64,000 nucleotides of DNA from a virus (lineage: Duplodnaviria > Heunggongvirae > Uroviricota > Caudoviricetes). This document shows, piece after piece, positions 1,284-35,910 of this stretch. The stretch lies in the IMG/VR virus record IMGVR_UViG_3300044640_001538; one strand, given 5' to 3'. The notes under the pieces are model-generated. The model was not told the origin of the DNA. It was given only the letters and a program-made list of their open reading frames with translations, and ran no database searches. The position numbers and the translations under genes are program-made. The first letter of the stretch is position 1, and each line of letters begins with the position of its first letter.

Positions 1284-1326
1284 ATTTATCTTCTGCAAAT
1301 ATACGAAATTTATTTTATATAGGCAA
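1284..1326 (-). promoter_or_regulatory. Bacteroidetes-type promoter (TTG-N20-TATATTTG) for lipoprotein gene
   Basis: Minus-strand sequence TTTCGTATATTTGCAGAAG (plus-strand caaatata at 1296..1303) with TTG 20 nt upstream; one of 8 near-identical copies in the window. Confidence 0.6.
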
Positions 1327-2112
1327 ACTTATTTTACTTAAAGTTTTATTTGAAACATGACAATAAATCTGGGTTGTTCTAATGTTCTGATGTCCAGCTA
1401 ATTGTCTTATTATTTGCAAATCTGTTCCTGATTCTAAAAGTGTTGTAAAACTACTATGACGTAGCAAGTGAAAATGATAGTCCTTACCTATATATTTTTT
1501 AACTATCTCGTTACAACTTCTGTGAGAATATTGTAAACCAAACTGTCCGTTAAACAAGAACTCTTTTGGTCTGTACTCCTTAAAATATTCGCGCAAAAGA
1601 TTTAAAACAACAGAAGATAAAGGTACAAACCTGTCTTTTCTTCCTTTACCGTTTTTAATTAAAATCAACATCCTTTTAGAATCAATATCTTCTAATTTTA
1701 AATTACAAACTTCACTAACTCGCATCCCTGTAGAGAAAGCTAAAGTGATTATTGCTTTGTGCTTTAAATTTTCAATCTTTGAAATCTTAGCTAACAAAAA
1801 ATCTTTGTCAATTACTCTCGGTAGTTTCTTTTCAGTTTTGGGTCTTTCTATTTTGTTTAGGTGAACATCTTTTCTATCTAAAATATATCGCGCAAAAAGT
1901 TTTAAACAGCCAATAAACTGATTTTGTTGAGCAATAGAAGAAAATTCCTTACTTTCAAGAAAACAAACAATATCTTTAGTTGAAACTTTGTATGGGTCTT
2001 TACAATTTACTTCTTTTAAGTATTGAAAAAGTACTTGTTTATAAACCTTAATTGTGTTTTGAGAATAGTTTTTATATCTTAATTTATTTTCAAAAATTTC
2101 GAGAACTTTCAT
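1315..2112 (-). CDS. int: tyrosine recombinase/integrase (phage integrase family)
   Basis: C-terminal catalytic region HxxR...Y: LLRHSSFTTLLESGTDLQIIRQLAGHQNIRTTQIYCHVS; upstream Arg box GMRVSEVCNLKLEDID. Confidence 0.85.
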   Translation of the reverse strand: MKVLEIFENKLRYKNYSQNTIKVYKQVLFQYLKEVNCKDPYKVSTKDIVCFLESKEFSSIAQQNQFIGCLKLFARYILDRKDVHLNKIERPKTEKKLPRVIDKDFLLAKISKIENLKHKAIITLAFSTGMRVSEVCNLKLEDIDSKRMLILIKNGKGRKDRFVPLSSVVLNLLREYFKEYRPKEFLFNGQFGLQYSHRSCNEIVKKYIGKDYHFHLLRHSSFTTLLESGTDLQIIRQLAGHQNIRTTQIYCHVSNKTLSKISLPI

Positions 2113-2165
2113 AGTTAAAGTATTGATTTTATTGATATTTTTTATTAGTTGTGGATATATAATAG

Positions 2166-2555
2166 TTAGGCGAGATTCAAAGAAACCGTTAACTCAACAT
2201 ATTTTAAAACCGCTTCATAAACAGAATTAATCATAGGTTGTCCTTCGTTTATTATATTTATATCTTCAAATTCTCCAACTACTAAAGAATGGATTTTACA
2301 TTGGTCGCTGTAAATTGTAACCCAATCTCTTTTATTTATTTTTTCAACAACAGGCATCAAATAATTCCATTCTTTATAAGTTGGTAATGCTTCATAATCT
2401 TTCATTTCAGCATTATTGTAATACCAATATTCATTTCTTGTATGTTCATTAAATCCTTTAATAGGAGTTATCCCCATATATTGAGCAATAAGAACCTCGC
2501 CTAACACAGGTTTTGTGCTATTGCTACTTTCTGCTTGTTTGTTAACTTTGTTCAT
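2166..2555 (-). CDS. hypothetical protein
   Basis: ORF in track; co-oriented. Confidence 0.4.
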   Translation of the reverse strand: MNKVNKQAESSNSTKPVLGEVLIAQYMGITPIKGFNEHTRNEYWYYNNAEMKDYEALPTYKEWNYLMPVVEKINKRDWVTIYSDQCKIHSLVVGEFEDINIINEGQPMINSVYEAVLKYVELTVSLNLA

Positions 2556-2628
2556 TATTTTATACTTTTAGTTATTATTTGTTTAATTTAGTGTACATTA
2601 TACGCAACAGACACAAAGCCTGATAACG

Positions 2629-2991
2629 TTATGCCTCAGTTTGACCTAGCAACGTGATAACTACAACATTTGGAACTTGATACTCTACATTCGCGACATA
2701 AAACAAAGTTTCTTTTAAATCTCCAAAAATATGCGGAGCATCAATATTCTTAAATGTTATTAGATTTGTTTCTACTGGAATATATACAGGATTCCAATCT
2801 CTGTGAATTTCTTTTTGTTTTTTTGTAACATAAATTACGACTAACTGTTTATTAGATTGATTTTTTTCTTTTTCAAAAACACCTCTAATAAAATCTTTTG
2901 CTTCTTTAATTTCTGACATAATGTTTAATTTAAAATTACTTCCGACTTGAAACGGTGTGGAAGCTAAACCGTATAAAAAAACCGAAGGCAT
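2629..2991 (-). CDS. hypothetical protein
   Basis: ORF in track. Confidence 0.4.
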   Translation of the reverse strand: MPSVFLYGLASTPFQVGSNFKLNIMSEIKEAKDFIRGVFEKEKNQSNKQLVVIYVTKKQKEIHRDWNPVYIPVETNLITFKNIDAPHIFGDLKETLFYVANVEYQVPNVVVITLLGQTEA

Positions 2992-3115
2992 AACAGCAGT
3001 TACACGAGATTTGGGTTTTAGGCAAACTATAAAGTTTGTTTTGTACTTTTGTGGTTAGTGATAAACCGAAAGTTAAAGGTGTACTTTTTCCCAAACCTCG
3101 TGTAGCTGCGAAACG

Positions 3116-3616
3116 TTATATGCTATTTAAAATAGACACACTTTCAAATTTTGATTTTTTAGGGTAAGCAAAATAAGACAACTCACAACCAATTTCTGAT
3201 AGATAACTTACTTTTAGGTACAATGCCATTTTTGAAAAGTCGTCTATCGACTTGTCTGTTGCACCTAAATTTCGTCTTAACTCACTTTCGTATTCGTTTA
3301 GAATTATGTCTTCATTTGGTATGATTTTTAAAAAAACAGAATTTTTTAATTCTTCTATTTTCTTTTTAAATGAATTCATTTCTTTGTCAAAATCATCTTT
3401 TCGCCATTCGGTATTTGACCAATATTTTTCATAATAATAATCTACTGCTTTATTGATAGCAATTTCTTCATTATTAGACTTTACTTCAATGTTTACAAAC
3501 TGATAATCTCTGTTACCATCTTTTGCTGATAATTTTACTACATACATATTTTTATAATTTGCGAAAGAAAAACAGCATATAACAGCGTGTATAAAAAATG
3601 GCGGGTTTCGTGCCAT
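3116..3616 (-). CDS. hypothetical protein
   Basis: ORF in track; preceded by promoter copy at 3708..3738. Confidence 0.4.
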   Translation of the reverse strand: MARNPPFFIHAVICCFSFANYKNMYVVKLSAKDGNRDYQFVNIEVKSNNEEIAINKAVDYYYEKYWSNTEWRKDDFDKEMNSFKKKIEELKNSVFLKIIPNEDIILNEYESELRRNLGATDKSIDDFSKMALYLKVSYLSEIGCELSYFAYPKKSKFESVSILNSI

Positions 3617-3699
3617 TTAGAAACATTTGTGATAATATAAACTGCATTGCTTTCAAGTTAATTTTGTGCTTTAATTCCGCCACTTCTTATACACGCAAA

Positions 3700-3740
3700 A
3701 CGTTATGCAAATATACAAAATTTATTTGACAATTACAAAT
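3700..3740 (-). promoter_or_regulatory. Bacteroidetes-type promoter copy (TTTG-N20-TATATTTG)
   Basis: Plus-strand caaatata at 3708..3715; RC TTTG 20 nt upstream. Confidence 0.5.
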
Positions 3741-4204
3741 TTATCTTTAACATCTTCTAAAAAAGTTAATCTACCCTTATCTGAAACGGCAAATAATAAA
3801 CTGTTCTTTTCTTTATATTTTAAATCTTTATGATGAAATTCTATTGAGTGTCTTTCATAAGTTTCTCCGTTTAATTTTTTTACGCCGCTGTAATAATTTA
3901 AAGCAGAGATATACTCCATTCTTCTATACGTTTTACCCTTATAAAAAGCTGTATACCACACTTTTAATTTTTCATCATACATCTTAACATCTTCTAAACA
4001 AAGTGCCTTAAAACTTCCTAAATACTGTTTGAAAGGCTCTTGACCTACTTCCATCCAGGCATTTTCTGGTTTGCCGAAATTAGAACTTAAATAAGTGATT
4101 GCTACTTTATCTATTGCTTGTTCGTAACATCTTGTAGGTTTACAAGCTAATAATACATCGTGTAAACAAGTGTTTAATAAATCTAATTTGAATTTTTCTA
4201 GCAA
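3722..4204 (-). CDS. hypothetical protein
   Basis: ORF in track. Confidence 0.4.
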   Translation of the reverse strand: MLEKFKLDLLNTCLHDVLLACKPTRCYEQAIDKVAITYLSSNFGKPENAWMEVGQEPFKQYLGSFKALCLEDVKMYDEKLKVWYTAFYKGKTYRRMEYISALNYYSGVKKLNGETYERHSIEFHHKDLKYKEKNSLLFAVSDKGRLTFLEDVKDKFVIVK

Positions 4205-4542
4205 AGCTCTTGTATGTTTTTAATTAATCTTCTTTCTTTTTCCGCCATTTTTTCTAACGCTTCGTCTGTTTCTTGGTTGATATTTTTTATTACCAAATCT
4301 TTTAAGCGCGTTAAAAAAGTACTACCTAATCTTTCTTTTGTTGAGAAATTAGTATTTTGTATTGTTATTCCTGTTTCGTCTAAAAGAATAAACAGTTGTT
4401 TTTCTTCGTTCTCAATTAAAATGTTTGTTTTGTTTACTTCTAACTTTACTCTCTTTTTAGAATCTTTGTGCGCCAAAAGTTTAATGACAACTTGCTCTAA
4501 TTCTAATTCTTTCTCTGTTAATTTCTTTTCAAATTTAAACAT
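4198..4542 (-). CDS. hypothetical protein (charged, coiled-coil-like)
   Basis: ORF in track. Confidence 0.35.
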   Translation of the reverse strand: MFKFEKKLTEKELELEQVVIKLLAHKDSKKRVKLEVNKTNILIENEEKQLFILLDETGITIQNTNFSTKERLGSTFLTRLKDLVIKNINQETDEALEKMAEKERRLIKNIQELC

Positions 4543-4780
4543 TATCGTGCAAAATAAATTAAATCAAAAAACTCGTCAAAACAACTGTTAAAAACTATTT
4601 GAGCTTCTTCTGTAAATTGTTTCTCTCCTTTTATGATTTTATATGGGTTACTAAATATTTTCTCTACTTCTTTTGTTGCTAAACCTACTGCTTTTTCTAC
4701 CATTTAAACTTTTTTATTCAATTTTATTAAACATATAATCGCCGAAACAAAAAATAAATCGGCTAAAATTAACAATATTA

Positions 4781-5200
4781 TCATAGTGTATATATCTCTG
4801 AATCTGTCATTACTGCTAATTTTTCTATTGGGTATTTACCTTTTAACTCTTCAATCATTTTTTTGCGGTCGATTTGAAAATTTCTGTAAACAACTGTTTC
4901 AGAAACTACTTCATAACCTAAACTTCTAACAACGTTTTTCCATTGATTTTTAGACTTGATATTAAAATGTTCTAATAAATCGCCAATAGTTTCAAAAGTA
5001 GTAGTCTTATTGTCTTTTTTAAGTTCTACTACAATAGTATTTATTTTTGGAAAATACTTATGTGATACTGTTTCTCTTTTTCCAGACTGTAATCTTTTTA
5101 TTGTTTTAAAATCTTCTTCTGTAAAACTTGAAAAATCTTTATTGTTTAGAGTATTTTTTGGAAACTTTCTTAAAACTGTTGCTACTTCTTTTGCTGTCAA
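4781..5200 (-). CDS. hypothetical protein
   Basis: ORF in track. Confidence 0.4.
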   Translation of the reverse strand: MTAKEVATVLRKFPKNTLNNKDFSSFTEEDFKTIKRLQSGKRETVSHKYFPKINTIVVELKKDNKTTTFETIGDLLEHFNIKSKNQWKNVVRSLGYEVVSETVVYRNFQIDRKKMIEELKGKYPIEKLAVMTDSEIYTL

Positions 5201-7006: not shown

Positions 7007-7375
7007 TTAATTGATATAAGGTTGTTTCCATAATTCTAAAGTGTTACTTTCTATTTTATTAATCTGTTGTTGAATATAGTTTTCTATTAGTGGCTCTAAA
7101 TCTCTTTTCCAAATGAATGTATTTTCAAAATCTATGCTGTCATAGTTGTCATACTCTACTATACTTTCTAAAATCTGTTGTTTTGTTTTGAAAGTGTAGT
7201 TGTTTTGAACCTCTTTTTTAATTTTTTCGCGCAAAGAAAGAAAATAGAACTGCAAATATAAGTAATCTATTCTGTTATTCAAAGAAAAATATCTATTTTT
7301 TTGCACCCAACTTAATTTAGATAAGTTTTTAGGTTGAGAATCTACTGCTTTTTGAAGTACTTGTAACTTTGTCAT
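7007..7375 (-). CDS. hypothetical protein (contains an internal promoter-like copy at 7253..7283)
   Basis: ORF in track; 4-nt overlap with upstream gene. Confidence 0.35.
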   Translation of the reverse strand: MTKLQVLQKAVDSQPKNLSKLSWVQKNRYFSLNNRIDYLYLQFYFLSLREKIKKEVQNNYTFKTKQQILESIVEYDNYDSIDFENTFIWKRDLEPLIENYIQQQINKIESNTLELWKQPYIN

Positions 7376-9440: not shown

Positions 9441-9470
9441 ATTTTTTCGCGCAAAAAGATTAAAAAGACA
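9441..9470 (-). repeat. GC-palindrome motif copy (plus strand TTTTTTCGCGCAAAAAGATTAAAAAGACAGCC)
   Basis: One of more than 20 copies of consensus TTTT(T)CGCGCGAAAAAGATTAAAAAGACAG located 10-40 nt upstream of minus-strand start codons. Confidence 0.6.
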
Positions 9471-9657
9471 GCCTTTTTTCAAACTCATCTAAATTCTCTT
9501 CAAAAGTTAATAAGTTCTGATAATACTCATAAAAATCTTCCAACTCTATTAAACTATAATCTGTATGATTAAGCATATAAGAAACCCAATCTTCAAAGTA
9601 ATATATCTCTTGTTCCATATTTTTAGCAAATGTAATTATTAATTTTATATTGTGCAA
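9460..9657 (-). CDS. hypothetical protein (C-terminal codons RLSF* lie within the GC-palindrome motif)
   Basis: ORF in track. Confidence 0.4.
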   Translation of the reverse strand: MHNIKLIITFAKNMEQEIYYFEDWVSYMLNHTDYSLIELEDFYEYYQNLLTFEENLDEFEKRLSF

Positions 9658-11623: not shown

Positions 11624-11685
11624 AATTTTATATTTTTAAATTGTTATACAAATATATTATTAATTATTTTAATGTGCAAATGTTT

Positions 11686-13945: not shown

Positions 13946-14034
13946 AACTATATATGTTTTTTAATTATTGTTATACAAATGTATTAAATTGTTTTTAAAT
14001 ATACAACTGTTTTTTATTTTTTTTTCGCGAAATT

Positions 14035-14582: not shown

Positions 14583-15240
14583 ATTATTTTAATTTAATTG
14601 AGATAAACAAATTTGTTTTAATTCTTTTGGCAAACTACTTAATAATTCCGCCAAAGAAAAAGCAATAAAGCAATAATATAAAGTATTAAATTCATACCAT
14701 TGCAACCCGTTTTTAGTTACTATTCTAATCATTGAAAAATTAATCTAAATAAAAATTGATAAACAAACATATATAAAAATATAACTACTAAAATGATTTT
14801 GATATACTTATTCATAATATATTGGGTTTTTAAATTAGTTCCGTTGTATGTTTCGCTCATATTATACTAACAACTATTTAGCAACGGATAATATTTTTTT
14901 ACACATTCATTATTTATAGTTGCAAGATAGTGCTAATACAACTTTTGTTATTCTCTGTAAGGTGCTAACTCACGCCTTTACGCTTTGAGGAAGATTCAAC
15001 CTTAATAACTTGTTACACAATATGTCAAAGAGCGTTGTTCTAATTTGATATAGCAAAGATAAAACAAATTTTTAAACTACCAAATAAAATTTTAATTATT
15101 TTATTAATTTAAAATCATTCTAAATAAGAGCGTTATATCTTTATTCAATCATTTTGATAGTACAAATGTATATTAAACATTTTAAATAAAAAAGTTGTTT
15201 ATTAATTATTTTATTCGTATAATACGTGCGCGTGCGCAAT

Positions 15241-15275
15241 TCAATATATAATCGGCGCAAAGAAACTAAAAACAG
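15241..15275 (-). repeat. GC-palindrome motif copy inside the large non-coding region
   Basis: ATCGGCGCAAAGAAACTAAAAACAGCCC preceded by GTGCGCGTGCGCA. Confidence 0.45.
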
Positions 15276-16120
15276 CCCTAAAATTAAATACAATACATTT
15301 AAACAAAGATAATATAAATAACATATCTACATATCAAAATAAAAAGATAATGCAACCAAAACAATATTTGAATAATGCAAATTATTTATGTTAAAAGTTA
15401 TGCCGCAAAAGAAAATAAATAAAAAACAAATATAAACTGTTAAATTATTATAATCAATATCAATTCTAAATAAGCAATAATATAGAATGAATATAAACTA
15501 CAATATTGTTAACAAATAACACAATAAAAATTTTGAAAATCAAAAACTTTTTTAGAGCGTTTCTCCTGGACCGAAATGCAAGTGTAATAGAGTGGTGGGT
15601 GTGGAGTAAAAACGCTTTGGAGACTACGGCGGTTTCTGTATGGTCATAAGACAGAGAACCACGTACGACCAATTTTTAAACTATTTCCAAGTTTTGCTAT
15701 TTATCACATCTTTTATAGTGTGTTCCCCACAATTAAAAATTCTTGCTAGTTCTTTGACGGGGGTATATTTATACACACCATACCTAATTTCATTAACTAT
15801 ATCCCAATTCATTTTAGTGTTCCTTGTCTTTTTAACATTTTCTTTAAGTGGTATCCATTGACAATTATCTGCTGAATAGTTTCCATCATTGTTTATTCTG
15901 TCTATAGATAATTTTATTCTATTCTTTTATTTCTTTTACGCGGCAATCTTTTTTACCAACTACGATACATTTTAATTTTGAATACTGGCATCAATCCTAA
16001 GCCACTATAACAATAAAGTAATACAAGTATATAAAAATAAAAAAGTTTTTGTCTTAAAACGCCTAAAATGAAAAAGTGTAAATATATTAGGTGGGGGGTA
16101 CATTTTAAGAGGTGGGGTAT

Positions 16121-16156
16121 ATAAAATAAAAAACCCCTACTTGTTATAAGTAAGGG
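16121..16156 (-). terminator. rho-independent terminator on minus strand (9-bp stem CCCTTACTT/AAGTAGGGG plus TTTTTTATTTT)
   Basis: Hairpin followed by a T-tract on the minus strand, at the end of the 16302..16913 early transcription unit. Confidence 0.55.
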
Positions 16157-16301
16157 TTAAGGTTAGTATTCTAATCTGTCTTTTATTGCTTCTGCTTTTT
16201 CTATTAGTTGTTTACTTTCTTCTCCTGGTATTGTTTTTAGAAAGTCTATTAGTTCTTTGTATAGCCATTTCATTTTATTTCTGTTTTTTACGCGCGAAAT
16301 T

Positions 16302-16913
16302 CTAACTTACACTTCTTGCAAAATCTATTGCCATTTGTTTTGCATCTTCTAATGTTTTTGCTGTCCATTCTCCTTTGCCCCATTTTTCAGGATATTCAGA
16401 AAACATACCACTTATTTGACCTCTCATTTTTTCATTAGGTGTTTTATCATCATAGGTATAACGTACCCATATTCCTAATTTTCCATCTTGTTCTCCCTCT
16501 TCAGCAATTGGATTTACTTTATGTGTCTCATACATATCTGTGTCACCCCAAAAACGTAAACAGTCTTGTTTAAAATCTTCTTTATTTGATGGTTCAAAAC
16601 CACAATTACCTTGTTTACATTCACTCCCTATACCAAATCCAAATATCGCTCTGTGTGACCAACCATACCATTTCTGTTCTGTGGGGTTAAATCCTATACA
16701 GCAAGTTTTTGGTTCTCCATATCCATCTTGTATTTGTTCAGTGATTCCTTTTTTTAGTAGAAAGTTTAATTCTTCTTCCATTCCTACTCTTGTTAAATAG
16801 GCACCGTCTACTTTTGAATAATAAATTTTACCTTCATCATTAGGGATTCTTGAATCTCCTATATTTGCAATTGAATTAATAAACTCTTGCAACTCTTTTT
16901 TGTTTTCTTTCAT
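16302..16913 (-). CDS. hypothetical protein (203 aa, Cys/Gly/Trp-rich central region)
   Basis: ORF in track; no recognisable motif. Confidence 0.45.
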   Translation of the reverse strand: MKENKKELQEFINSIANIGDSRIPNDEGKIYYSKVDGAYLTRVGMEEELNFLLKKGITEQIQDGYGEPKTCCIGFNPTEQKWYGWSHRAIFGFGIGSECKQGNCGFEPSNKEDFKQDCLRFWGDTDMYETHKVNPIAEEGEQDGKLGIWVRYTYDDKTPNEKMRGQISGMFSEYPEKWGKGEWTAKTLEDAKQMAIDFARSVS

Positions 16914-20204: not shown

Positions 20205-21803
20205 TTAAACTTTTGGGTATAGGACTACAACGCCTATGTTAAACATTTTTATTGCCGACTCTGAAGCTGATTCTAAAGCAACTCTAATAGATTTTTTACT
20301 GTCAATAATACCATCTGTTAATAGATTTGAAATTTCATCTTTAACTGCATTATACCCAACTCCAAACTTATCTTCCGAGTGTTTTAAATAGTTTATTCCA
20401 AAGTACTTTTTATTTTTTCTGTTGGCGTTTTTCAAGATTTGCAACATTGGCGACTTTAAAACTGTTTTTACTAAGTTATATCCCTTTTGTTCATCTTTAT
20501 TTGCAAACTTTTTGTACATTAAATTAGAAATAAACACTAAAGTACTTCCTCCACCTGGAATATATCCTTCTGAAATAGCAGATTTAACTGAAGCAAGTGC
20601 ATCGTCAACTCTGTCATACTTCTCTCTAATATCATTTGGTGTTAAACCCCCTACTTCAATAAGACAAGATTTGCCAGATAATCTTTTCATTCTAGCCAAG
20701 TCTGAAGGTGTTTTATCTTCTTTATCTCTCAAAATTTCAACTGCATCGAACACTTCTTGAGGGATATTCGCTACCGAAAGTACAGTTTGGTCATCTGAAA
20801 TAACTGCTTTATCGGCAAAACCTGTAACAAAAATAGGATTATTATCTTTATCTCTCTTAACGGTGTCTGGATTGTAAACTTCTGCTCCAGTGAACATAGC
20901 AATATCGTTCAATAAAGATACATTTTCATATTCTGATTGAACAGCAAGTCCAACTAAACAAATATTTACTCCTGCATTCTTTAAAACAATCAATCTGTCT
21001 TTAAATTCTGTAATAGGTCGTTCTGTAAAGATTAATAAAGGCGCTTTATTACCGTTTCTTTGTACAAAGTATTTTAAAAAGTCTAAAACCTCTGTATTTT
21101 CTTGCCAGATAGATAAACATAAAACAGAAACCTTCTCGTCTTCAAATACTGGTTTAGATTCTTTGTTTATAAAAAATGGAGAAGAAAAACCTTGATTAGG
21201 TAACACCATTCCACTTTGCTCAATAACTTTTATATCTTCTGTATTTTCATTTTTTGAAACTTCTATAACGCCGTCTCTACCAACAGAATTAAAAGCTTGA
21301 ACTATCTTACCACCTAACTCTGTATCGTTATTACAAGAAGTGTTAGCAATCATTCTAAGTGAATTTTCATCTGTATCTATAGCAAAATAATCTAAATTAC
21401 TATACACTTCACTAACTGCTGCTTTTATACCTCTTTCTACGGCTTTATTGAAATTTTTTCTCTTGAAATTGTTTAAGAAAGCTTTTTGAAAGACCATTGT
21501 TGTAGTAGTACTATCTCCAGACTTTTTTAAAGTGGATACAGCACCTTGAATAGCTTGTAAAGCACCAAAGTTTTTTGCTGGCTCTGCAAACCTAATTCTT
21601 AAAGCTACAGAAACACCGTCTTTTGTTAAAATTGGTGCATCTTTATCGTTTCCGCTGTCTAATAGCGAATACTTACCTTCAGCACCTAAAGTTTGAGCAA
21701 CTGCCTCACAAGCTTGTAAATAACCTTCATCTAAAAGGTCATAATCTTTAATCAATATATTGACAACCCCCTTTAACGGAGTTCTTTTTAAACTATTTAT
21801 CAT
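20205..21803 (-). CDS. groEL: phage-encoded GroEL-like chaperonin (Cpn60 family)
   Basis: Cpn60 hallmarks: TKDGVSVA, GDSTTTTMV (compare GDGTTTATV), a GGG ATP-binding loop near the C-terminus (PGGGSTLV), and DGIIDSKKSIRVALESA (compare GIIDPTKVTRSAL). Length 532 aa. Confidence 0.85.
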   Translation of the reverse strand: MINSLKRTPLKGVVNILIKDYDLLDEGYLQACEAVAQTLGAEGKYSLLDSGNDKDAPILTKDGVSVALRIRFAEPAKNFGALQAIQGAVSTLKKSGDSTTTTMVFQKAFLNNFKRKNFNKAVERGIKAAVSEVYSNLDYFAIDTDENSLRMIANTSCNNDTELGGKIVQAFNSVGRDGVIEVSKNENTEDIKVIEQSGMVLPNQGFSSPFFINKESKPVFEDEKVSVLCLSIWQENTEVLDFLKYFVQRNGNKAPLLIFTERPITEFKDRLIVLKNAGVNICLVGLAVQSEYENVSLLNDIAMFTGAEVYNPDTVKRDKDNNPIFVTGFADKAVISDDQTVLSVANIPQEVFDAVEILRDKEDKTPSDLARMKRLSGKSCLIEVGGLTPNDIREKYDRVDDALASVKSAISEGYIPGGGSTLVFISNLMYKKFANKDEQKGYNLVKTVLKSPMLQILKNANRKNKKYFGINYLKHSEDKFGVGYNAVKDEISNLLTDGIIDSKKSIRVALESASESAIKMFNIGVVVLYPKV

Positions 21804-22971
21804 AATTCTCTAGTAGCGTTTGTCCACGCTTTAAAATTGTTAATGACGCTAAAAAATCTGCATTACCTTCGTGAGAACATTTAACACATTTAAACGTTTC
21901 TTGATTAGGTCTGTTTTCTTTTGCAACATACCCACAATTATTACATTCTTGTGAACTATATTTAGCATCTATTTTTATTAATTCTGTTTTGTACTCTAAG
22001 TATTGAGCAAATTTACTCCAACTAACATCTGAAATAGCTTTTGAATAGTTTTTATTTTGTACCATTTTTGATACGTCTAAATCCTCTACAAAAACTGTTT
22101 GATAATTATTAGCTAACTCTCTTGAAACTTTATGAAGATAATCTTCTCTAACTCTTTGTATTTTTAAATAGATTTTCTTTACTTTTTCTACTTCTTTGTA
22201 AAAGTTGTTAGAACCTCTTTTCTTCAAAGCTAACTTTCTTTGAGCATCTGCTAATTTTTTAGCATACTTGTTAGTTGTTTTAATATTCTCAAAAAATTGA
22301 CCGTCTGAGGTAACTGCAAAATGTGTTATCCCTACATCAATTCCTACTTGTGCTTGGTTATTGCATTTTTGGATTTCGTGGTCTGTAACTATTTGTAAGT
22401 ACCAACCGTCAACTTTTTTAACTACTCTTGCTAATTTTATGTTTCCATATACTTCTCTACTTTTAAATATTTTTACTTTTCCTAATTTTGGTAAATTAAA
22501 TTTTCCGTCTTTTTCAAATCTTAAATCTGGAGTTATTCTTTTTGTATTACCTTGATTAAATTCTATTGATTCCCAGTCTTTTTTCTTTGCCCATTTGGGC
22601 TTTCCAATTTCAAATAGTTTCTTTTGATTAATTTCTGTTCCATTTTTTAAACATTTGTTGATGTAATCCTGTTTTAGTTTTGAAATTTTACCTTCTTTAA
22701 AATCTTTGAAAAACTTTTTATAGCTTTTATCAAGTCTTTCTATTGTACTTTGTAATGTGTTAGCATTTACATTAAAAATCCAAGTAAATTCTTTTTTAAG
22801 TTCTGGTAATTGTTTGCATAAATCAAACTTACTTAATTTCACACCTTTAGAATAAGCATATTCTTTAGTCTCTTTTGCTAAATTGTAGATATATCTAGTT
22901 ATGTTTAGATGCTCTTCAAACTTTAATTCAAGGGATTTAGTAGTTTTTATTTTAAAGGTATAGGTTATCAT
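21793..22971 (-). CDS. tnpB: TnpB (IS200/IS605-family OrfB; RNA-guided RuvC nuclease), solo with no tnpA
   Basis: RuvC-I GIDVGITHFAVTSDG, RuvC-II FVEDLDVSKM, zinc finger CNNCGYV...CVKCSHEGNAD, RuvC-III NADFLASLTI; OrfB-type N-terminus. Catalytic D/E/D are present. Confidence 0.85.
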   Translation of the reverse strand: MITYTFKIKTTKSLELKFEEHLNITRYIYNLAKETKEYAYSKGVKLSKFDLCKQLPELKKEFTWIFNVNANTLQSTIERLDKSYKKFFKDFKEGKISKLKQDYINKCLKNGTEINQKKLFEIGKPKWAKKKDWESIEFNQGNTKRITPDLRFEKDGKFNLPKLGKVKIFKSREVYGNIKLARVVKKVDGWYLQIVTDHEIQKCNNQAQVGIDVGITHFAVTSDGQFFENIKTTNKYAKKLADAQRKLALKKRGSNNFYKEVEKVKKIYLKIQRVREDYLHKVSRELANNYQTVFVEDLDVSKMVQNKNYSKAISDVSWSKFAQYLEYKTELIKIDAKYSSQECNNCGYVAKENRPNQETFKCVKCSHEGNADFLASLTILKRGQTLLENYDK

Positions 22972-23105
22972 TACTCTTTCAAGTCTTTAAGAATTAATGT
23001 TCTAACCCAAGAAGATAAAGATAAACCACCTGACTTCGCTTTTTGTTTAGCTTTATTTTTAGTTTCTTCATCAATCCTTATTAAGATATCCTTTTCTTTT
23101 ATCAT
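22971..23105 (-). CDS. ribbon-helix-helix (CopG/Arc-like) protein, 44 aa, not in track; translationally coupled to tnpB (TAATG overlap)
   Basis: Hand translation MIKEKDILIRIDEETKNKAKQKAKSGGLSLSSWVRTLILKDLKE: a beta-strand (ILIRID) followed by two helices is the classic RHH pattern. Its stop shares 1 nt with the tnpB ATG. Confidence 0.6.
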   Translation of the reverse strand: MIKEKDILIRIDEETKNKAKQKAKSGGLSLSSWVRTLILKDLKE

Positions 23106-23117: not shown

Positions 23118-23160
23118 TATATTGCAAATATACTACATTTATTTTAATTATGCAAATTTA
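23118..23160 (-). promoter_or_regulatory. Bacteroidetes-type promoter driving the RHH-tnpB-groEL operon
   Basis: caaatata at 23125..23132 (RC TATATTTG), with RC TTTG 20 nt upstream (tgcaaattta at 23151..23160). Confidence 0.6.
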
Positions 23161-24693: not shown

Positions 24694-24966
24694 TTAATTA
24701 TTTAATTTGTTACTAATTTCTTCTATTGTTTCTTTCACTGTGAAATTTAATCCAGCTTTAGTAAAGATAACTGTTTCTTTTTGTTCGACGCGCACAAGAG
24801 ATACAATCTCATCTGTAAATATCGCCATTTCTTGTTCTATTTCTGCGTAATCTTCTTCGTTTAATTCGTAATCATCTCCTTCTGCTTCGAGGAATTTTAC
24901 TTTTGCCTCTGCTTCTTTTGTTAAGGATTCTCCAATTCCTGTAAGTGTAATTAGTTTTCTGTTCAA
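24694..24966 (-). CDS. hypothetical protein
   Basis: ORF in track; promoter copy just upstream. Confidence 0.4.
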   Translation of the reverse strand: MNRKLITLTGIGESLTKEAEAKVKFLEAEGDDYELNEEDYAEIEQEMAIFTDEIVSLVRVEQKETVIFTKAGLNFTVKETIEEISNKLNN

Positions 24967-24987: not shown

Positions 24988-25026
24988 CTTCTGCAAATAT
25001 ACGAAAAATTTTTGACATGTGCAAGT
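24988..25026 (-). promoter_or_regulatory. Bacteroidetes-type promoter copy
   Basis: caaatata at 24994..25001; RC TTG in gtgcaag 20 nt upstream. Confidence 0.55.
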
Positions 25027-25036: not shown

Positions 25037-25780
25037 TTATTTTTCTTCCATTAATAACTCCAATTCAGCGAGTGCATTCCAGGCAACATGATAACAATGT
25101 GGTAACATACTTTCTAAATCTATCCCTTGTTGCATTCTATGACGTAATCCTGCGTCTGCATAAGCTTTACTTCCACCTTCTACACGTTTGAAATTAAGGT
25201 AATCTTTATCTGTTTCTTTATATTTGTTGTGCCCGTATTCAGAACATCTTACAATAGCCTCTAAAGCTTTAGGAAACTGCTTGAATAATAAAGACATTTG
25301 AGGTTTTAATTCATTTAGTTTTATCCCTTTTCCTTCAGTTTCTTTTACGCCGTGTTGTGCTTCAACTGCTCCGTCAATTAGTTCTTTCCATTGCGCTATA
25401 GCCTTATCTAACTTTGTCATCTTTTCTCCCTCTCCGCGAGAAACGTTTGTAATTGTATCGTCTTTTTCTAGTTTGTCATACTCTTCTTGTGTAATAAGGT
25501 TTGGGTTATTAAAATACATAGTATCAAGAAATTCTTGTTTATACCCTTCCGCTAAATTTAATCTATCTTTAACCTCTTTTAATTTTTCTTCTTGCTCTAT
25601 AGCTTCATCTAAGTATATCATTTTTTCTCCTGCTTTATGTCTTGTGCTTAATCCTATTGCTTCTTTAACTGCTTCGTTTACTTGTTTTTCGCCGCGAAAA
25701 GGATTAGAAACAGACAAATTATTCGAACTGTAAAACTCTTCTTCACTAACTTCTTTATTATTAAGATAATACTTTTGCAT
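25037..25780 (-). CDS. hypothetical protein (247 aa)
   Basis: ORF in track; contains an internal copy of the GC-palindrome motif (25683..25720). Confidence 0.45.
   Translation of the reverse strand: MQKYYLNNKEVSEEEFYSSNNLSVSNPFRGEKQVNEAVKEAIGLSTRHKAGEKMIYLDEAIEQEEKLKEVKDRLNLAEGYKQEFLDTMYFNNPNLITQEEYDKLEKDDTITNVSRGEGEKMTKLDKAIAQWKELIDGAVEAQHGVKETEGKGIKLNELKPQMSLLFKQFPKALEAIVRCSEYGHNKYKETDKDYLNFKRVEGGSKAYADAGLRHRMQQGIDLESMLPHCYHVAWNALAELELLMEEK
25683..25720 (-). repeat. GC-palindrome motif copy (inside CDS 25037..25780)
   Basis: TTTTTCGCCGCGAAAAGGATTAGAAACAGACAAATT. Confidence 0.5.
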
Positions 25781-25923
25781 ATATAATCAAATTTTCACTG
25801 TTAACTTCTATCTCCACTTGCACGTTTTTAATCGCCTTTTCAAAAGCATCAAAACTGTCATATTCTTTACCGTCTAAAAAATACCTAAAATTTCCTTGTG
25901 TTTTCATATCATTTTAAATTTAG

Positions 25924-25994
25924 ATGTTCAACCAAGACTTGAACTTGGAATAACTGCACCAAAAACAGTTGTGTTACCATTACACCATTGAACA
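25924..25994 (-). tRNA. tRNA-Gln (anticodon UUG)
   Basis: Hand-folded cloverleaf: 7-bp acceptor TGTTCAA/TTGAACA, D-stem GTGT/ACAC with loop AATGGTA, anticodon stem ACTGT/GCAGT with loop TTTTGGT (U33, UUG at 34-36, G37), T-arm CCAAG-TTCAAGT-CTTGG, discriminator T; CCA not encoded. Confidence 0.75.
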
Positions 25995-25999
25995 ATTTA

Positions 26000-26510
26000 G
26001 AGTAGCTACTTTAAAGCTTTTTCACTACTCTTTTTTACACTATGTTATTTTATTATTTTAATCCAAATAAGGCATTATCATCGCCAGGAAGGAAGATAGG
26101 TTTTAAAGTTTAACCTCTATAACTGCTGTATTACAATCAATCTCTGTTTATTTTACGTTGAACAGAATCCTCTACAGCGGAGTACAAAACAACGGCTTGA
26201 GAAAGTGGGTGAATTTGAATCACCAACGCCGTTTTTAACTCGGACTCTCCGTAAGGATAGCATCTACCAATGTTGTAGTCTTACTCTACACTCTTTCGCC
26301 ACACTTTCTACCACGTTTACGGTCCGCCGACAAAAAATTAAAAACGCATCCATCAAGATTGGGATAAAGCAACCTAAACCATAGGTATTAAATGAGGAAT
26401 CGAACTCTCTACTTTTATCATACTCGAACAAACATTAACACCTCTTGATAGTGTTGTAACTGTACTAGAAAAGTCCCATTACTTGTTTGTCTTTCTCTGT
26501 GTTTTTAATT
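26000..26510 (-). ncRNA. promoter-driven non-coding leader upstream of tRNA-Gln, with tRNA-like fragments (perfect T-arm GGTGATTCAAATTCACC at 26209..26225; 7-bp acceptor-like pairing GAAAGTG/CACTTTC spanning 26200..26308)
   Basis: No ORF across about 500 nt; a promoter copy at 26517..26547 points into it; T-loop consensus and complementary ends are present, but the 109-nt span does not fold as a canonical cloverleaf. Confidence 0.3.
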
Positions 26511-26550
26511 CTTCTGCAAATATACGAAATTATTTTTAATTGTGCAAATT
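26511..26550 (-). promoter_or_regulatory. Bacteroidetes-type promoter copy oriented into the ncRNA/tRNA region
   Basis: caaatata at 26517..26524; RC TTTG (tgtgcaaatt) 20 nt upstream. Confidence 0.55.
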
Positions 26551-32041: not shown

Positions 32042-32059
32042 GTTTTTTTTAATTTTTTA

Positions 32060-32100
32060 TTATTGCAAATATACGAAATTTTTTTGAATTATGCAAGTTT
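32060..32100 (-). promoter_or_regulatory. Bacteroidetes-type promoter copy
   Basis: caaatata at 32066..32073; RC TTG (atgcaag) 20 nt upstream. Confidence 0.55.
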
Positions 32101-33483
32101 TTTATAGATTAATTTCACTTGTCTTTCTAACTCTTTGTCTTTAAAATCGAAATCGGAATTAGCTAACCATTTTAAGTAGTGCCGTTTTCTATAATAAAGT
32201 TCTTTTACTTTTTTACCTTTGTTTGCGCCGAAAGTTATTACAGCATCTCCTGGATTATGTTCTCCAAATACATATTCAACTTTTGGTTTACCGCCTTTTC
32301 TCAAAAAATCTTTTGTGAATACCTTTTCGCTGTCCATTGGTACATCGTTTATTAATATGTCTTTTTTGAATAACCCCCAGCCGTACCCTTCTATGTATTC
32401 GTAATTTAAATCTCTTACGTCTCCATGTGTTCTAACATTTCCCGCAAAATCTATAATTCTGCCAAACTTTTTATCTTTATGTATCCTTGTTATTCGCCCA
32501 GTCTTTTGCATGTGCAACCTTATTGAGTTAGTTGGCGTGCAATCTACTAAATTTTTAAGACTTGGTTTATCAAAACCGACTGTTAATGCTAAAGGAGTTA
32601 TAGCAACTCTGTATTTGTCTTCTTTAAAGCCGTCAACAAATTCCTTTCTTTGTTTTTTAGTTATTTTAGAATGTATTGCAACAGAGTTAGGTATCAGTTT
32701 TTGTAGTTCTTCTGCTTCTTCTATGCTCGGCACAAAAACTAAAGCATCTTCTCCTTCTGGTAGACGGCTTAAAAATTGTGCAACTTTTTCTTTTAAATTA
32801 CAAGCTTCATAAAACGATTTTTTAGATTCTTCTGTAAAATCGCTACCGCTACTATTCGTTACGAGTATTGGTTGCTTAGAATGGTCAAAAACATCAAAAT
32901 ATTGAATGTCTGACCAATAATTCTTACTAACCAATTCACTAATTTGTGTTACAAAACAAATATCTGTAAAAAACGCTCCTTTTACGTTGTGCATCATTCT
33001 TGTAACAGCTCCGTCCATTGTTTGTTCTAAATAGAAAGCACTTGCTGTTAAGCCAAGGCAAGATTTTATTTTTAACTTTTTTAACAGCTTCACCATTTCT
33101 GAATCTGGCTTACTTGCAAAGTCGCACTCGTCGACTATTACATATTTTATGTTTAAATCTTTAAAGTCTTTATAGGTCAAAGATTTTGGAGTGGCATAAA
33201 TTAAATTTTCTTCTGTTTCTTTTTTTCCCGCAGAAGCAGAAAAAGTGGAGTATTTAGCCCCAATTGCTTCTAACTTTTCAATACCTTGATTAAGTAAATC
33301 AATGTTTGGCTGTAATACTAAAACCTTACCATCTGTTAGCTCTTTACTTATGTGTGCAATTATAATCGCTTTTCCAGCAGCGGTGGGCAGAATTGCAACT
33401 TCTTTTCTACCAAGCTCGTCTCTTAAAACAGATAAACATGTTTTGACACATTCTTCTTGGTAATCTCTTAATTTATAAATCAT
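32089..33483 (-). CDS. SF2 (DExD/H-box) DNA helicase
   Basis: Motif I LPTAAGKA, motif II VIVDECDF, motif III LTASAF, motif VI QKTGRITR. Confidence 0.7.
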   Translation of the reverse strand: MIYKLRDYQEECVKTCLSVLRDELGRKEVAILPTAAGKAIIIAHISKELTDGKVLVLQPNIDLLNQGIEKLEAIGAKYSTFSASAGKKETEENLIYATPKSLTYKDFKDLNIKYVIVDECDFASKPDSEMVKLLKKLKIKSCLGLTASAFYLEQTMDGAVTRMMHNVKGAFFTDICFVTQISELVSKNYWSDIQYFDVFDHSKQPILVTNSSGSDFTEESKKSFYEACNLKEKVAQFLSRLPEGEDALVFVPSIEEAEELQKLIPNSVAIHSKITKKQRKEFVDGFKEDKYRVAITPLALTVGFDKPSLKNLVDCTPTNSIRLHMQKTGRITRIHKDKKFGRIIDFAGNVRTHGDVRDLNYEYIEGYGWGLFKKDILINDVPMDSEKVFTKDFLRKGGKPKVEYVFGEHNPGDAVITFGANKGKKVKELYYRKRHYLKWLANSDFDFKDKELERQVKLIYKKLA

Positions 33484-33485
33484 TA

Positions 33486-33824
33486 CTAGTATGCTATAAA
33501 ATCATCTCCGACAACTCCAAAAAACTCTTGTTTACCATCTTCAAATTTAGTTAAATCTTTGAATATATTTAAAAGCGTGTCAGATTCCGTATCTTCCGTA
33601 GCGTAGTTATATTCAATTATTATATTATTCATTTCTCTATTGCTTAATAAATGAACATTTTTTGTATCATATTCGCCTGCATAATCCATAATACCATTTT
33701 TAATATTCATATTAACAAGTTCTACAATTGCGTGAACTTTAGAATAGGCAATAACAAAATAATTACTATTATCTAATACCTCTACTCTATACATTTTTTG
33801 GTCAAACTGATGCATACCTTTCAT
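33486..33824 (-). CDS. hypothetical protein
   Basis: ORF in track. Confidence 0.4.
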   Translation of the reverse strand: MKGMHQFDQKMYRVEVLDNSNYFVIAYSKVHAIVELVNMNIKNGIMDYAGEYDTKNVHLLSNREMNNIIIEYNYATEDTESDTLLNIFKDLTKFEDGKQEFFGVVGDDFIAY

Positions 33825-33830
33825 ATTTAT

Positions 33831-34058
33831 TTATATTTCGTTTTTTAATATATCGGACAAAGTTTTAAAAATAAAAACTAAACCTTCTCTCTCTATTGAA
33901 CCTTTTATTTTAAAAGACGTTTCAATGTTTTCAATTGAGTCTGACTTTATATACACTTCTGTTATTGTTGAATTACCTTCGTATTCCCCAAGCCTTACTC
34001 CAAAAACTATTTCTTCTGGTGAATTTATAAATCTTTCTATAGTTTTTAACTTTTCCAT
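33831..34058 (-). CDS. hypothetical protein (start revised to internal Met; the track start overlaps the promoter)
   Basis: Promoter -7 box at 34077..34084 overlaps the track start at 34079. Confidence 0.35.
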   Translation of the reverse strand: MEKLKTIERFINSPEEIVFGVRLGEYEGNSTITEVYIKSDSIENIETSFKIKGSIEREGLVFIFKTLSDILKNEI

Positions 34059-34069
34059 TTTTAATATTT

Positions 34070-34110
34070 TAGACTGCAAATATACAAAAAATAATTATAC
34101 TTTGCAAGTT
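34070..34110 (-). promoter_or_regulatory. Bacteroidetes-type promoter copy
   Basis: caaatata at 34077..34084; RC TTG (tttgcaagtt) 20 nt upstream. Confidence 0.55.
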
Positions 34111-35282
34111 TTATTCAACATTTCTATTTCTTTTTTATAATCTTTATAATATTTTTCAATTGTTTTTTTTGAAATATTATGATTTTTATAAATACTTTGC
34201 TGTGTTATTTTTCCTAATTTAACAAAATCCCAACAATCTAAAATATTTTGTATTTTCTCTCGTGACGCTTTTTCTTTCGATTCGGAAGACACTTCTCTAC
34301 AAACTGCTAATTTTTCGTTTTTACTTAATCCGCAGTATTTACCAAATAAAGCTTTTCTTTTTATAACTCCAGTAGGTCTTAAAGTACCTTCTTTTTTGTA
34401 TTTTAAAATAGAACTAATAATCCTTTGTAATTGTGGCTCATCAACAGGGTTTGTAAAATTATTAAAGTTTACTGCTGTCATAATAGCGTGCAATCTATCT
34501 TCGTATATATTTGGATTCAACCAAACTAAATTTGTACAATATGCTAATAATATATTATTTCTATTTTTTGATACTTTTTTGTAAAGTAGTTTTGCTTGTA
34601 TAAAATCAAAGCCTTCTATGTTCTTTATAACAGACTCTTCATTTTCTAAATAGTCTGCTCGATTATCAAATCTTACATTGTTTCCATTTTCCCCCCACTG
34701 TGTGCTATATGCTTTCTTTTTTTTATTTATTTCACAAAGGGGGGAAAGATTAATACTTTTAAATATTTTAGATTTAGTATTAAGGTAAAGATTCTCATCA
34801 TAAGAGAGTACATTGAATTGTGTAGTTTTTTTAGCTCCTAAATCAACATAATTAGATATTTCTAATTTAGAACATACGTACGCATAGGTTTCATTAAAAT
34901 TATCCTCTGTTAATCCGTCTACACGAATAACAATAGAATAACCTTTACCACCAAATGATTTATAGTATGCAAAAATATCTGATTTATTTACATTTTCTAT
35001 TTTAAAATCTGGTGCATCAATATCAACATACAGTAACCCAGTAGGTGCAACTATGTTTGACTTATTTTTATAACCGTTAAAATTAAAGTTGTAAACAACA
35101 CAAGGAAGTTGTTCTGTTTTTGTTGTATCATAATCTAATTCTCCGTTTCTAGCTTTTAATATTAAATCTGAATACTCTCCTTCTTTAATACAGTTAAACC
35201 AGTCATAAACAGAAATTTGTTTTATAACGTTACAATTCTTTGTGCAATAAAAGTAATCTAATATGTAATTATCTTTTTCCAT
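34095..35282 (-). CDS. putative replication initiation / primase-polymerase protein (prim-pol-like N-domain plus PriCT-like C-domain)
   Basis: LLYVDIDAPDF (DxD catalytic-like), GKGYSIVIRV, and a C-terminal helical region resembling PriCT_1. Confidence 0.4.
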   Translation of the reverse strand: MEKDNYILDYFYCTKNCNVIKQISVYDWFNCIKEGEYSDLILKARNGELDYDTTKTEQLPCVVYNFNFNGYKNKSNIVAPTGLLYVDIDAPDFKIENVNKSDIFAYYKSFGGKGYSIVIRVDGLTEDNFNETYAYVCSKLEISNYVDLGAKKTTQFNVLSYDENLYLNTKSKIFKSINLSPLCEINKKKKAYSTQWGENGNNVRFDNRADYLENEESVIKNIEGFDFIQAKLLYKKVSKNRNNILLAYCTNLVWLNPNIYEDRLHAIMTAVNFNNFTNPVDEPQLQRIISSILKYKKEGTLRPTGVIKRKALFGKYCGLSKNEKLAVCREVSSESKEKASREKIQNILDCWDFVKLGKITQQSIYKNHNISKKTIEKYYKDYKKEIEMLNKTCKV

Positions 35283-35466
35283 TTTTATAAAATGCGAAAA
35301 GCCCTAAAAACAAAAAACAGTAATGGTGCGAAGATATACTGTTCTGTTAATAGAGCTTTTCAGTTCTTTATATTTTAATCTCTACATGTATCTTCGCCAA
35401 CATATAAAGTGTTTATTCCAATAAAATTTTGTTTGTTTGCGGCACAAAACAATAAAACCGAATTTT

Positions 35467-35505
35467 AAAATGCAAATATACGAAAAATATTCGACAAAAA
35501 CAAAT
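35467..35505 (-). promoter_or_regulatory. Bacteroidetes-type promoter copy (leader of about 180 nt to the 35282 start)
   Basis: caaatata at 35473..35480; RC TTTG 20 nt upstream. Confidence 0.5.
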
Positions 35506-35510
35506 TTAAA

Positions 35511-35795
35511 TTAAACTAAATCTTCTGGAAGTTCACCAGACGGATTATATTTAAAGAAACTGTATAAAAATACGTCAAATAGTTTAACACAACTACTTAT
35601 ACTAATTGGGTTATACAAATCATTCTTATACATCTCATACATTTTGAAGATAACAGAAATATAGAAATCATAGTTTTCTTCAATATGCGCGCGATTAGTA
35701 ATTACTTTAGAAATATTCTCTAAAACAACTTCTTTAAACTCTTCGTAGCCTAACTTTTCACGGTCTTTTGCTACATTATCTTCTAATTCAAACAT
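35511..35795 (-). CDS. hypothetical protein (last minus-strand early gene)
   Basis: ORF in track. Confidence 0.4.
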   Translation of the reverse strand: MFELEDNVAKDREKLGYEEFKEVVLENISKVITNRAHIEENYDFYISVIFKMYEMYKNDLYNPISISSCVKLFDVFLYSFFKYNPSGELPEDLV

Positions 35796-35875
35796 GCCAC
35801 AAAGATAGAAAAATAAGATGAGTTATACAAATTAATGACAACGATTGTAATAATATGTTAAAAAAATGTTAAAGT

Positions 35876-35910
35876 TCTTGCATATTACAAAAATTATTTG
35901 TATATTTGCA
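35876..35910 (+). promoter_or_regulatory. plus-strand Bacteroidetes-type promoter (TTG-N20-TATATTTG) opening the rightward gene block
   Basis: TTG at 35878..35880 and TATATTTG at 35901..35908; divergent from the minus-strand promoters. Confidence 0.55.

Follow-up and report, generated by a model that had tools for sequence, protein, structure and literature searches.

A repeated 45-nt motif in an uncultured tailed phage matches Bacteroidota sigma-A promoters and probably functions as such

A 64,000-nt stretch of a tailed phage genome (Caudoviricetes; IMG/VR record IMGVR_UViG_3300044640_001538), referred to below as the window, carries a 15-mer, TGCAAATATACGAAA as written on the plus strand, that recurs along its length, which raises the question of what these repeats are and which RNA polymerase would read them. 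The window has a GC content of 29%, and both its strand skew and its coding direction switch at ~35.85 kb, so that a minus-strand left arm is followed by a plus-strand right arm. A sequence-only reading had taken the repeats for early promoters of the type used by sigma-A, the primary sigma factor of Bacteroidota. Such promoters (sigma-A or sigma-ABfr), which were defined in Bacteroides fragilis, with genome-wide confirmation in both B. thetaiotaomicron (PMC7366714) and Flavobacterium psychrophilum (PMC9723704), combine TAnnTTTG at −7 with TTTG near −33 (PMC7366714). In F. psychrophilum the −7 box covers positions −12 to −5 (PMC9723704), which puts the transcription start site (TSS) 5 nt past the G of TTTG, and the TSS of each copy was predicted accordingly.

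With up to two mismatches allowed, the window contains 11 matches to TGCAAATATACGAAA, against 0.42 expected from shuffled sequences, and none of 100 shuffles reached 11. A two-mismatch match at 16855-16869 lies inside an open reading frame (ORF) and was set aside as unrelated. Nine copies, all but one of them on the minus strand, extend into a common 45-nt bipartite consensus, AAAnnTTGCAnAnTnnAAAAAnnATTTcGTATATTTGCA; we call these the strong copies and name each after the G of its TTTG (Table 1). The distance from TTG to TATATTTG is exactly 20 nt in all nine, and over 47 nt they have a mean pairwise identity of 69% and 11 invariant bases (GTATATTTGCA). The minus-strand coordinates of the sequence-only reading, which mark this G, were right, and all eight of its minus-strand sites are present; to say that the motif "recurs" there was slightly generous, as the 15-mer is exact in five, has one mismatch in two, and two mismatches in one. 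The extra copy it placed inside ORF 7007..7375 also exists, but with a 19-nt spacer and without the extended consensus, and of its three rightward copies (35878-35908, 42331-42360, and 60637-60667) the last two are weaker. The −7 element is TATATTTG in all nine strong copies and at site 42360, and AACCTTTG at site 45263; the weaker sites 9627, 11649, 13976, 35800, and 60667 read TAnnTTTG with nn bases that differ from those of the strong copies. E. coli-type −35/−10 sites are not enriched in the window (81 vs 73.7 expected, sd 9.5), and a sigma-70 reading was therefore rejected; terminator-like sites also occur at chance level there (5 vs 4.5 expected).

Six syntenic metagenomic loci (L124 to L129), reached via protein clusters and carrying helicase homologues 57-78% identical to that of the window phage, all have TTG-N20-TAnnTTTG sites of like appearance that are intergenic and in sense orientation. 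From 33 sites of these relatives we built a position weight matrix (PWM) that included no window sequence, with the cut-off set at the 95th percentile of null maxima (15.1). Such a scan had been proposed with the sequence-only reading; run on the window, it returned 16 sites, of which the left arm holds 12, on its minus strand, and the right arm four, on the plus strand; all are in the sense orientation of their arm and none is antisense. Beyond the strong nine, these were 13976, 11649, 9627, 35800, 60667, 45263, and 42360. The flanks outside the window (2 kb on the left, 10 kb on the right) hold one weak rightward site and no more strong copies. Could the matches be chance products of an AT-rich genome? 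The loose pattern TTG-N18-21-TAnnTTTG does give ~12 antisense or coding matches in this 29% GC window; however, no shuffle reached the observed count, the strong nine score 25-53 against null maxima of 15-17, the significant sites are all in sense orientation, and all nine strong −7 boxes are clear of coding sequence (in four of these copies, the −33 half lies over the 3′ end of the preceding gene), which leaves chance an exceedingly improbable explanation.

We then turned to host chromosomes. The composite motif TTGCA-N17-GTATATTTGCA matched more than 120 bacterial genome loci, and among the 80 loci listed, 68-71 belong to Bacteroidota and 6 to Firmicutes. As a host control, we used 871 kb of mostly Bacteroidota chromosomal DNA from those loci, set the selected matches aside, and examined the 918 other TAnnTTTG boxes. 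Upstream of these boxes, TTG peaks sharply at a spacer of 20 nt (97 boxes), with a shoulder at 19 nt (39) over a background of ~20. The 97 independent N20 sites favor C at −4 (75%), A at −3 (66%), G at −13 (42%), C at −32 (48%), and A at −31 (52%), and they are T-rich from −28 to −26 and A-rich from −24 to −18 and upstream of −36. The phage copies fix the bases that the host prefers, namely GCA after both boxes, an A-rich spacer, and G at −13. When the host profile is applied to the non-fixed positions alone, the scores of the nine copies rank at the 85th-98th percentile of host sites, whereas those of chance loose-pattern or antisense matches elsewhere in this phage rank at the 1st-29th. The proposed sigma-A-type identity is supported: both boxes are present, and their spacing of 20 nt is the one that host chromosomes favor most. 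The copies share with chromosomal sigma-A promoters both boxes, the TTG-TA spacing, GCA after TTTG, and the A-rich spacer; they differ in being phage-borne and in that all nine lie near the top of host scores with their invariant bases, and their recognition by sigma-A is predicted.

Taken together, the observed sequence, spacing, orientation, and position of the repeats, with their conservation and their fit to the host profile, suggest, with a probability of roughly 85%, that they are host sigma-A-type promoters that are probably functional. The host's primary RNA polymerase holoenzyme, with Bacteroidota sigma-A, would read them ahead of transcription units in this large phage of virulent type, recognizing at each site a −33 TTG(CA) and, exactly 20 nt away, a −7 TAtaTTTG(CA), and starting ~5 nt past the G, usually at an A. 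The nine copies, lying near the host optimum at nearly every informative position and showing no phage-specific signal, would be the strongest, factor-independent start sites of the phage, and their near-identity would follow from each sitting near that optimum. On the minus arm they would drive units for replication and nucleotide metabolism; further targets would be one rightward unit, a unit with a tRNA, and two acquired cassettes, one with a ribbon-helix-helix (RHH) ORF and TnpB and the other with a leader and a 143-aa gene.

Several points weigh against this reading. Actual initiation, promoter strength, and timing are predictions from the DNA. We infer a Bacteroidota host, with hints from the nearest cultured relatives, which infect Cellulophaga baltica, and from the 68-71 of 80 listed composite-motif loci, a taxonomic share that rests on that sample of 80. 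The host profile is mostly from Bacteroidales at 46% GC, compared with 29% in the phage, and AT-richness could explain part of the high host-profile scores, though chance sites of the same phage score low. Position −14, which carries little information and shows no host preference, is C in 5 of 9 copies here, T in 6 of 6 in L124, and A in 3 of 4 in L129; this lineage-specific base hints that copying between promoters, beside selection, adds to their identity. Finally, the absence of a polymerase, sigma factor, or obvious regulator among ~50 window ORFs scanned against PHROGs and Pfam concerns a partial genome, 64 kb of ~122 kb.

This last point bears on a different explanation, in which a phage polymerase or sigma factor reads the motif, or the motif is the operator of a phage regulator and merely resembles a host promoter. 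The nine copies are indeed more alike than typical chromosomal promoters, the scan covered about half of the phage genome, and crAss-like phages of the same host genus carry their own polymerase. Against this, every conserved position is a host chromosomal preference, the spacing is the host optimum, and the ~50 scanned ORFs gave no candidate factor; with a motif that is bipartite and host-like and no polymerase among these ORFs, the repeats fall outside the class of phage-polymerase promoters. In the crAss-like Cellulophaga phage phi14:2, the early genes read by the virion polymerase have no detectable common upstream motif, and a bipartite motif stands before the host-read middle genes (Drobysheva et al., bioRxiv 10.1101/2020.03.07.982082). 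Outside the window, single copies of the same 15-mer are found in Bacteroidota chromosomes and in more than 120 unrelated viral contigs of IMG/VR, and a 412-kb phage of that database has seven copies within 13.6 kb. One window copy, P23125, is not part of the phage backbone: it lies within a 1,456-bp insertion absent from L124, which also carries a 44-aa RHH ORF (23105..22971) and an IS605-type TnpB gene (22971..21793). A copy within an inserted TnpB element is easier to reconcile with a generic host signal than with one specific to the phage. We consider recognition by a phage factor quite improbable.

The promoter sites are conserved at syntenic positions in the six relatives. P32066 corresponds to L125:11412 and is identical to it over 45 nt, and P26517 has 94% identity to L125 over 96 nt while the adjoining PhoH gene gives no blastn match; P26517 is conserved at its syntenic site in L124, L125, L126, L128, and L129, the five relatives whose DNA reaches PhoH. 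Conservation of orthologous promoters thus far exceeds that of their surroundings. N20 sites of this kind also occur in the cultured phage phi17:2, where two almost identical copies stand upstream of its tRNA array. On the evidence of these relatives, phi17:2, and the IMG/VR copies, runs of near-identical consensus promoters are common among Bacteroidota phages.

Such conservation must be set against the possibility that the copies are alike through descent and copying, by duplication, gene conversion, or mobile cassettes, in which case they would still be promoters and their identity would be historical. Besides the genome-specific bases at −14, the initial transcribed sequence is common to some copies (GCAGAAG at 1296, 24994, and 26517; AAGAATTAAAAAC at 26517 and 35908), P23125 came with an insertion, homology to L125 ends 37 nt past the P26517 box with different cargo downstream, and the homology of a leader cassette in two other loci (L254 and L253) begins at the predicted TSS of P3708. 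However, the repeated unit is only ~45 nt long and lacks flanking inverted repeats or target duplications, most copies have no stem-loop, and the counts at −14 are small. Moreover, spacer bases that vary within the phage are kept between orthologues, as between P32066 and L125:11412, which points to long-term conservation site by site and not to recent homogenization. We therefore regard copying as the main source of the likeness as rather unlikely, and prefer selection toward the host sigma-A optimum.

The placement of the promoters relative to genes is consistent with sigma-A-type initiation. A start codon lies 0-41 nt past the predicted TSS at 12 of the 16 PWM sites (Table 1), and since the predicted TSS of P35800 coincides with the A of ATG 35795, the mRNA of the first leftward gene would be leaderless. 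Strong copies precede the primase, helicase, and UvsX genes, the region downstream of PhoH, small genes of unassigned function, and one rightward unit; the small-ORF region at 4-15 kb has only weaker variants, with TTTGTA in place of TTTGCA. The promoters also bear on gene calls. For ORFs 798..1298 and 33831..34079, the TTG "start" belongs to the −7 box TTTGCA; the sequence-only reading had moved both starts to internal ATGs, correctly so: with ATG 1250 the product equals the 150-aa JGI gene call and opens with a lipoprotein-type signal (MKKLLAVLVLGVSMISC), and with ATG 34058 it matches a 75-aa orthologue called in L124. That list of revisions was incomplete, as three more ORFs need correction. 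The TTG start of ORF 9460..9657 (9657) is the −33 TTG of P9627; ORF 3116..3616 really starts at ATG 3547 (143 aa in the JGI call, with all homologues 139-143 aa); and ORF 35866..36216, which begins upstream of P35908, overlaps it, and has an implausible translation, is probably spurious. Pfam and PHROG scans of the genes directly downstream of the promoters mostly gave no match, so gene function gives no hint on timing.

Table 1. Coordinates and properties of the predicted promoters and associated features in the window. The 15-mer column gives the match to TGCAAATATACGAAA and the first position of the match, unless stated otherwise.
Feature	Class	Coordinates	Strand	15-mer	PWM score	Predicted TSS to start codon (nt)	Details
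P1296	strong	1294..1326	minus	exact (1294)	43.7	41	TTG-N20-TATATTTGCA; predicted TSS ~1291; upstream of ATG 1250, 150-aa lipoprotein-like gene
P3708	strong	3706..3738	minus	one mismatch (3706)	33.1		predicted TSS ~3703
P7253	candidate, internal	7253..7282	minus	two mismatches (7251)			inside ORF 7007..7375; 19-nt spacer; fails N20 matrix
P9627	weaker	9627..9657	minus		25.1	4	TACATTTG; ATG 9618 in frame
P11649	weaker	11649..11679	minus		30.3	21	TATATTTGTA variant; ATG 11623
P13976	weaker	13976..14006	minus		32.2	26	TACATTTGTA variant; ATG 13945
P23125	strong	23123..23155	minus	two mismatches (23123)	47.0	15	44-aa RHH ORF, then TnpB downstream
P24994	strong	24992..25024	minus	exact (24992)	44.7	23	TTG start of 90-aa ORF at 24966
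P26517	strong	26515..26547	minus	exact (26515)	53.0		downstream of PhoH
P32066	strong	32064..32096	minus	exact (32064)	44.9	20	ATG 32041
P34077	strong	34075..34107	minus	one mismatch (34075)	29.9	14	ATG 34058
P35473	strong	35471..35503	minus	exact (35471)	24.7		upstream of primase-like gene
P35800	weaker	35800..35830	minus		16.0	0	TATCTTTG; ATG 35795
P35908	strong	35878..35910	plus	plus-strand copy (ends 35910)	39.3		first rightward promoter; first convincing ORF from 36191
P42360	weaker, rightward	42331..42360	plus		15.5		spacer 19; upstream of portal gene
P45263	weak candidate, rightward	45233..45263	plus		19.6	9	AACCTTTG; ATG 45277
P60667	weaker, rightward	60637..60667	plus		22.3	34	TATCTTTGCA; spacer 20; ATG 60706
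P3708 leader	leader, 156 nt	3548..3703	minus				before ATG 3547; 20-bp stem with two G-U pairs
Insertion	1,456 bp, relative to L124	21762..23217	minus				breakpoint L124:12620; directly upstream of phage GroEL gene
tRNA-Gln (UUG)	tRNA	25923..25994	minus
ORF-poor stretch	no convincing ORF, 518 nt	25995..26512	minus				between predicted TSS of P26517 and tRNA-Gln
P35473 leader	leader, 186 nt	35283..35468	minus				folding z = -4.17; before primase-like gene ATG 35282

The window is part of a phage genome of ~122 kb, with source contigs of 101.9 kb and 121.5 kb. The minus arm (1-35.8 kb) encodes a tyrosine-recombinase-like protein, many small ORFs, GroEL, the IS605-type TnpB, a dGTP-pyrophosphohydrolase-like protein, PhoH, a GIY-YIG endonuclease, UvsX/RecA, a helicase, and a primase-like protein, and the plus arm an HNH endonuclease, the large terminase (TerL), the portal, and virion and tail proteins; the gene content of the two arms identifies a tailed phage with divergent replication and structural arms. 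A megablast of 24 kb against GenBank phages gave no match and no near-identical phage. The nearest cultured relatives are the C. baltica phages phi17:2 and phi4:1 (genus Lightbulbvirus) and a gut phage, whose portal and helicase proteins are ~31-32% identical to those of the window phage. A portal protein search of IMG/VR found no relative, and a helicase search of JGI metagenome contigs found one distant locus only. As for the promoters of the two arms, GTTAAAG or TTTTAAC stands 3-4 nt upstream of the −33 TTG in the rightward and divergence-point promoters (window 35866-35880, 42322-42333, and 60628-60640; L251:20620-20635; minus-strand sites in L124 to L129), and a plain A-run takes its place in most leftward promoters; the element may mark a separate regulatory class.

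Four strong promoters (3708, 26517, 35473, and 35908) point into 156-518 nt of ORF-free sequence. The sequence-only reading had P26517 pointing into a gene-free region ending in tRNA-Gln and took this to imply a dedicated tRNA or non-coding transcript. The region is gene-free, with no ORF of at least 60 aa and only one 55-aa TTG ORF from 26512 down to the tRNA. A dedicated transcript is improbable: because no other promoter precedes the next gene (25037..25780), the tRNA-Gln sits in an operon leader, and the P26517 transcript is, from the arrangement of the locus, probably not dedicated to the tRNA. In L125, the promoter and the first 37 transcribed bases are identical (window 26478-26538 vs L125:15331-15391, 100%) and are followed by a 476-aa gene; the helicases of the two phages share 66% identity, and the cargo after P26517 is wholly different. 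The L129 counterpart leads into 730 non-coding bases with a tRNA-Met. The slot downstream of P26517 is thus a hotspot for variable cargo, recombination, or insertion. A minus-strand tRNA-like remnant at ~26199-26300 has an acceptor stem of 7 clean base pairs (GAAAGTG/CACTTTC) and a T-arm (GGTGA TTCAAAT TCACC), but also ~50 extra nucleotides and poor D and anticodon arms; a similar object occurs at L126:15995-16100. Relaxed ARAGORN calls of a "tRNA-Pyl(CUA)" (~26199-26295) and a "tRNA-Leu" in PhoH-downstream regions were rejected for poor arms and folding z near zero. An Rfam scan of the window at gathering thresholds and permissive scans of three leader regions found only the tRNA-Gln.

Two of the other leaders are structured. 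The P3708 leader and its 143-aa gene form a cassette that recurs in unrelated phage contexts (L254:991-1168 and L253:96-265). The ends of the leader (ATAACGTTTTGC ... GCTGTTATATGCTGTTTTTCTTTCG) are invariant among the window, L253, and L254, and in L253 the sequence of the stem is entirely different with its arms still complementary. The cassette homology starts exactly at the predicted TSS, and L253 and L254 are without the promoter. The P35473 leader has a nested hairpin and a U-run (35283-35375) ending ~20 nt before the primase-like ATG, and the hairpin is conserved among four genomes (window; L124:900-998; L125:8140-8231; L127:7600-7698), with 7 of its 13 pairs showing compensatory changes; it is a possible attenuator or terminator before a replication gene. 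A hairpin with a U-run ~20-40 nt before the start codon ends both structured leaders. In the P35908 leader, we found neither significant structure (z = +1.14) nor a homologue of the relatives' first rightward genes. These leader features suggest, as read from the sequence, promoter-proximal attenuation or abundant small RNAs. If the attenuator version were true, replication-gene expression would depend on a later antitermination step. A broader proposal, that this phage family uses maximal host promoters for abundant small structured RNAs such as attenuators, stable non-coding RNAs, or tRNA-like decoys against host defences, is speculative and we regard it as doubtful.

Other non-coding sequence deserves mention. 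In relatives, the slot from the first leftward promoter to the primase or helicase gene (L124:473-998, L125:7483-8231, L126:8035-8747, L127:7318-7698, L128:8101-9093; L256:15078-18545) forms an island of non-coding RNA whose content varies. In the metagenomic relatives it has 270-1000 nt with tRNA-Gln (L128), CAT-anticodon tRNA-like sequences (L125 and L127), and several conserved non-coding blocks common to L124, L125, and L128 (such as GTCCGTGCAAAAATTGTGATGGAC...CTTCTAACTTACGGAGTTAGA); in phi17:2, the same slot is a 22-tRNA array. A search for iterons or an origin in 35200-36000 found only short, weak repeats. A T-run, a GC-rich core, and an A-run recur in that order on the minus strand at 7236, 15411, 15262, 3567, and 35301 (CTTTGCGCGAAAAAATTAAAA, CTTTTGCGGCATAAC, TTTTTTGCGCGAAAAATAAAA) and also in L128 and L129 past the PhoH promoter, usually just after a hairpin or promoter, and the pattern is rare at 29% GC. 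The minus strand of 14583-16301 is ORF-poor for 1.7 kb and has a clean hairpin with a T-run, CCCTTACTTATAACAAGTAGGGGTTTTTTATTTT, at ~16117-16150, closely followed by two TACCCC(CC)ACCT repeats, as well as a GCGCACGCGCACG block at about 15235 and promoter-like sites at 15427 and 15054; it may be a transcription-block boundary, an origin, or a packaging site.

How do these promoters compare with known phage systems? The early promoters of coliphages T4, T5, and T7 (A1-A3) are multiple, near-consensus, and very strong host sigma-70 promoters with AT-rich conservation beyond the hexamers, which capture host polymerase without phage factors. They belong to another sigma family and consensus, and their early timing was established experimentally, whereas timing here is predicted. 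In T4-type phages, promoter-early stem-loop (PeSL) cassettes are repeated promoter units that border exchangeable gene cassettes. Similarly, homology between the window and other phages breaks at or just past a promoter in three cases; the coupling of promoter and stem-loop is absent, however, as no terminator stem-loop or other hairpin lies upstream of the copies and downstream hairpins occur at two or three copies only, among them P3708 and P35473. In phi14:2, a virion polymerase makes the early transcripts and host-polymerase promoters serve middle and late genes, and the crAss-like middle/late motif lies upstream of at least one tRNA gene in 12 of 14 phages; that study also reports highly transcribed non-coding regions (bioRxiv 10.1101/2020.03.07.982082). 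By description, the consensus of phi14:2 and other crAss-like phages is likewise an extended, multi-block, primary-sigma-like motif read by host polymerase; phi14:2 is an unrelated phage and has a virion polymerase, which was not seen in the window ORFs scanned here. The B. fragilis phage Bf12P1 has predicted promoters with −7 and −33 TTTG elements that are intergenic, precede co-expressed blocks, and serve early, middle, and late modules, with single-cell expression data (PMC13139388). The window promoters have the same elements and intergenic placement, and are predicted from sequence. With like promoters being middle/late in phi14:2 and of all three classes in Bf12P1, the "early" label of the sequence-only reading is unsupported.

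Use of host-type −33/−7 promoters by Bacteroidota phages is already published, and the window phage is a well-documented, unsurprising further case that leaves the transcription picture of the phylum unchanged. The 45-nt design, near the sigma-A optimum (TTG-N20-TAnnTTTG, each box followed by GCA, with G at −13 and an A-tract from −24 to −18), could be used for strong constitutive expression in Flavobacteriia or Bacteroidia, and the motif would be usable as a host-phylum signal for metagenomic phages. For the phage itself, the predicted promoters outline the transcription units of an uncultured genome of ~120 kb, lead to revised starts for at least five genes, and draw attention to four leaders that are non-coding.

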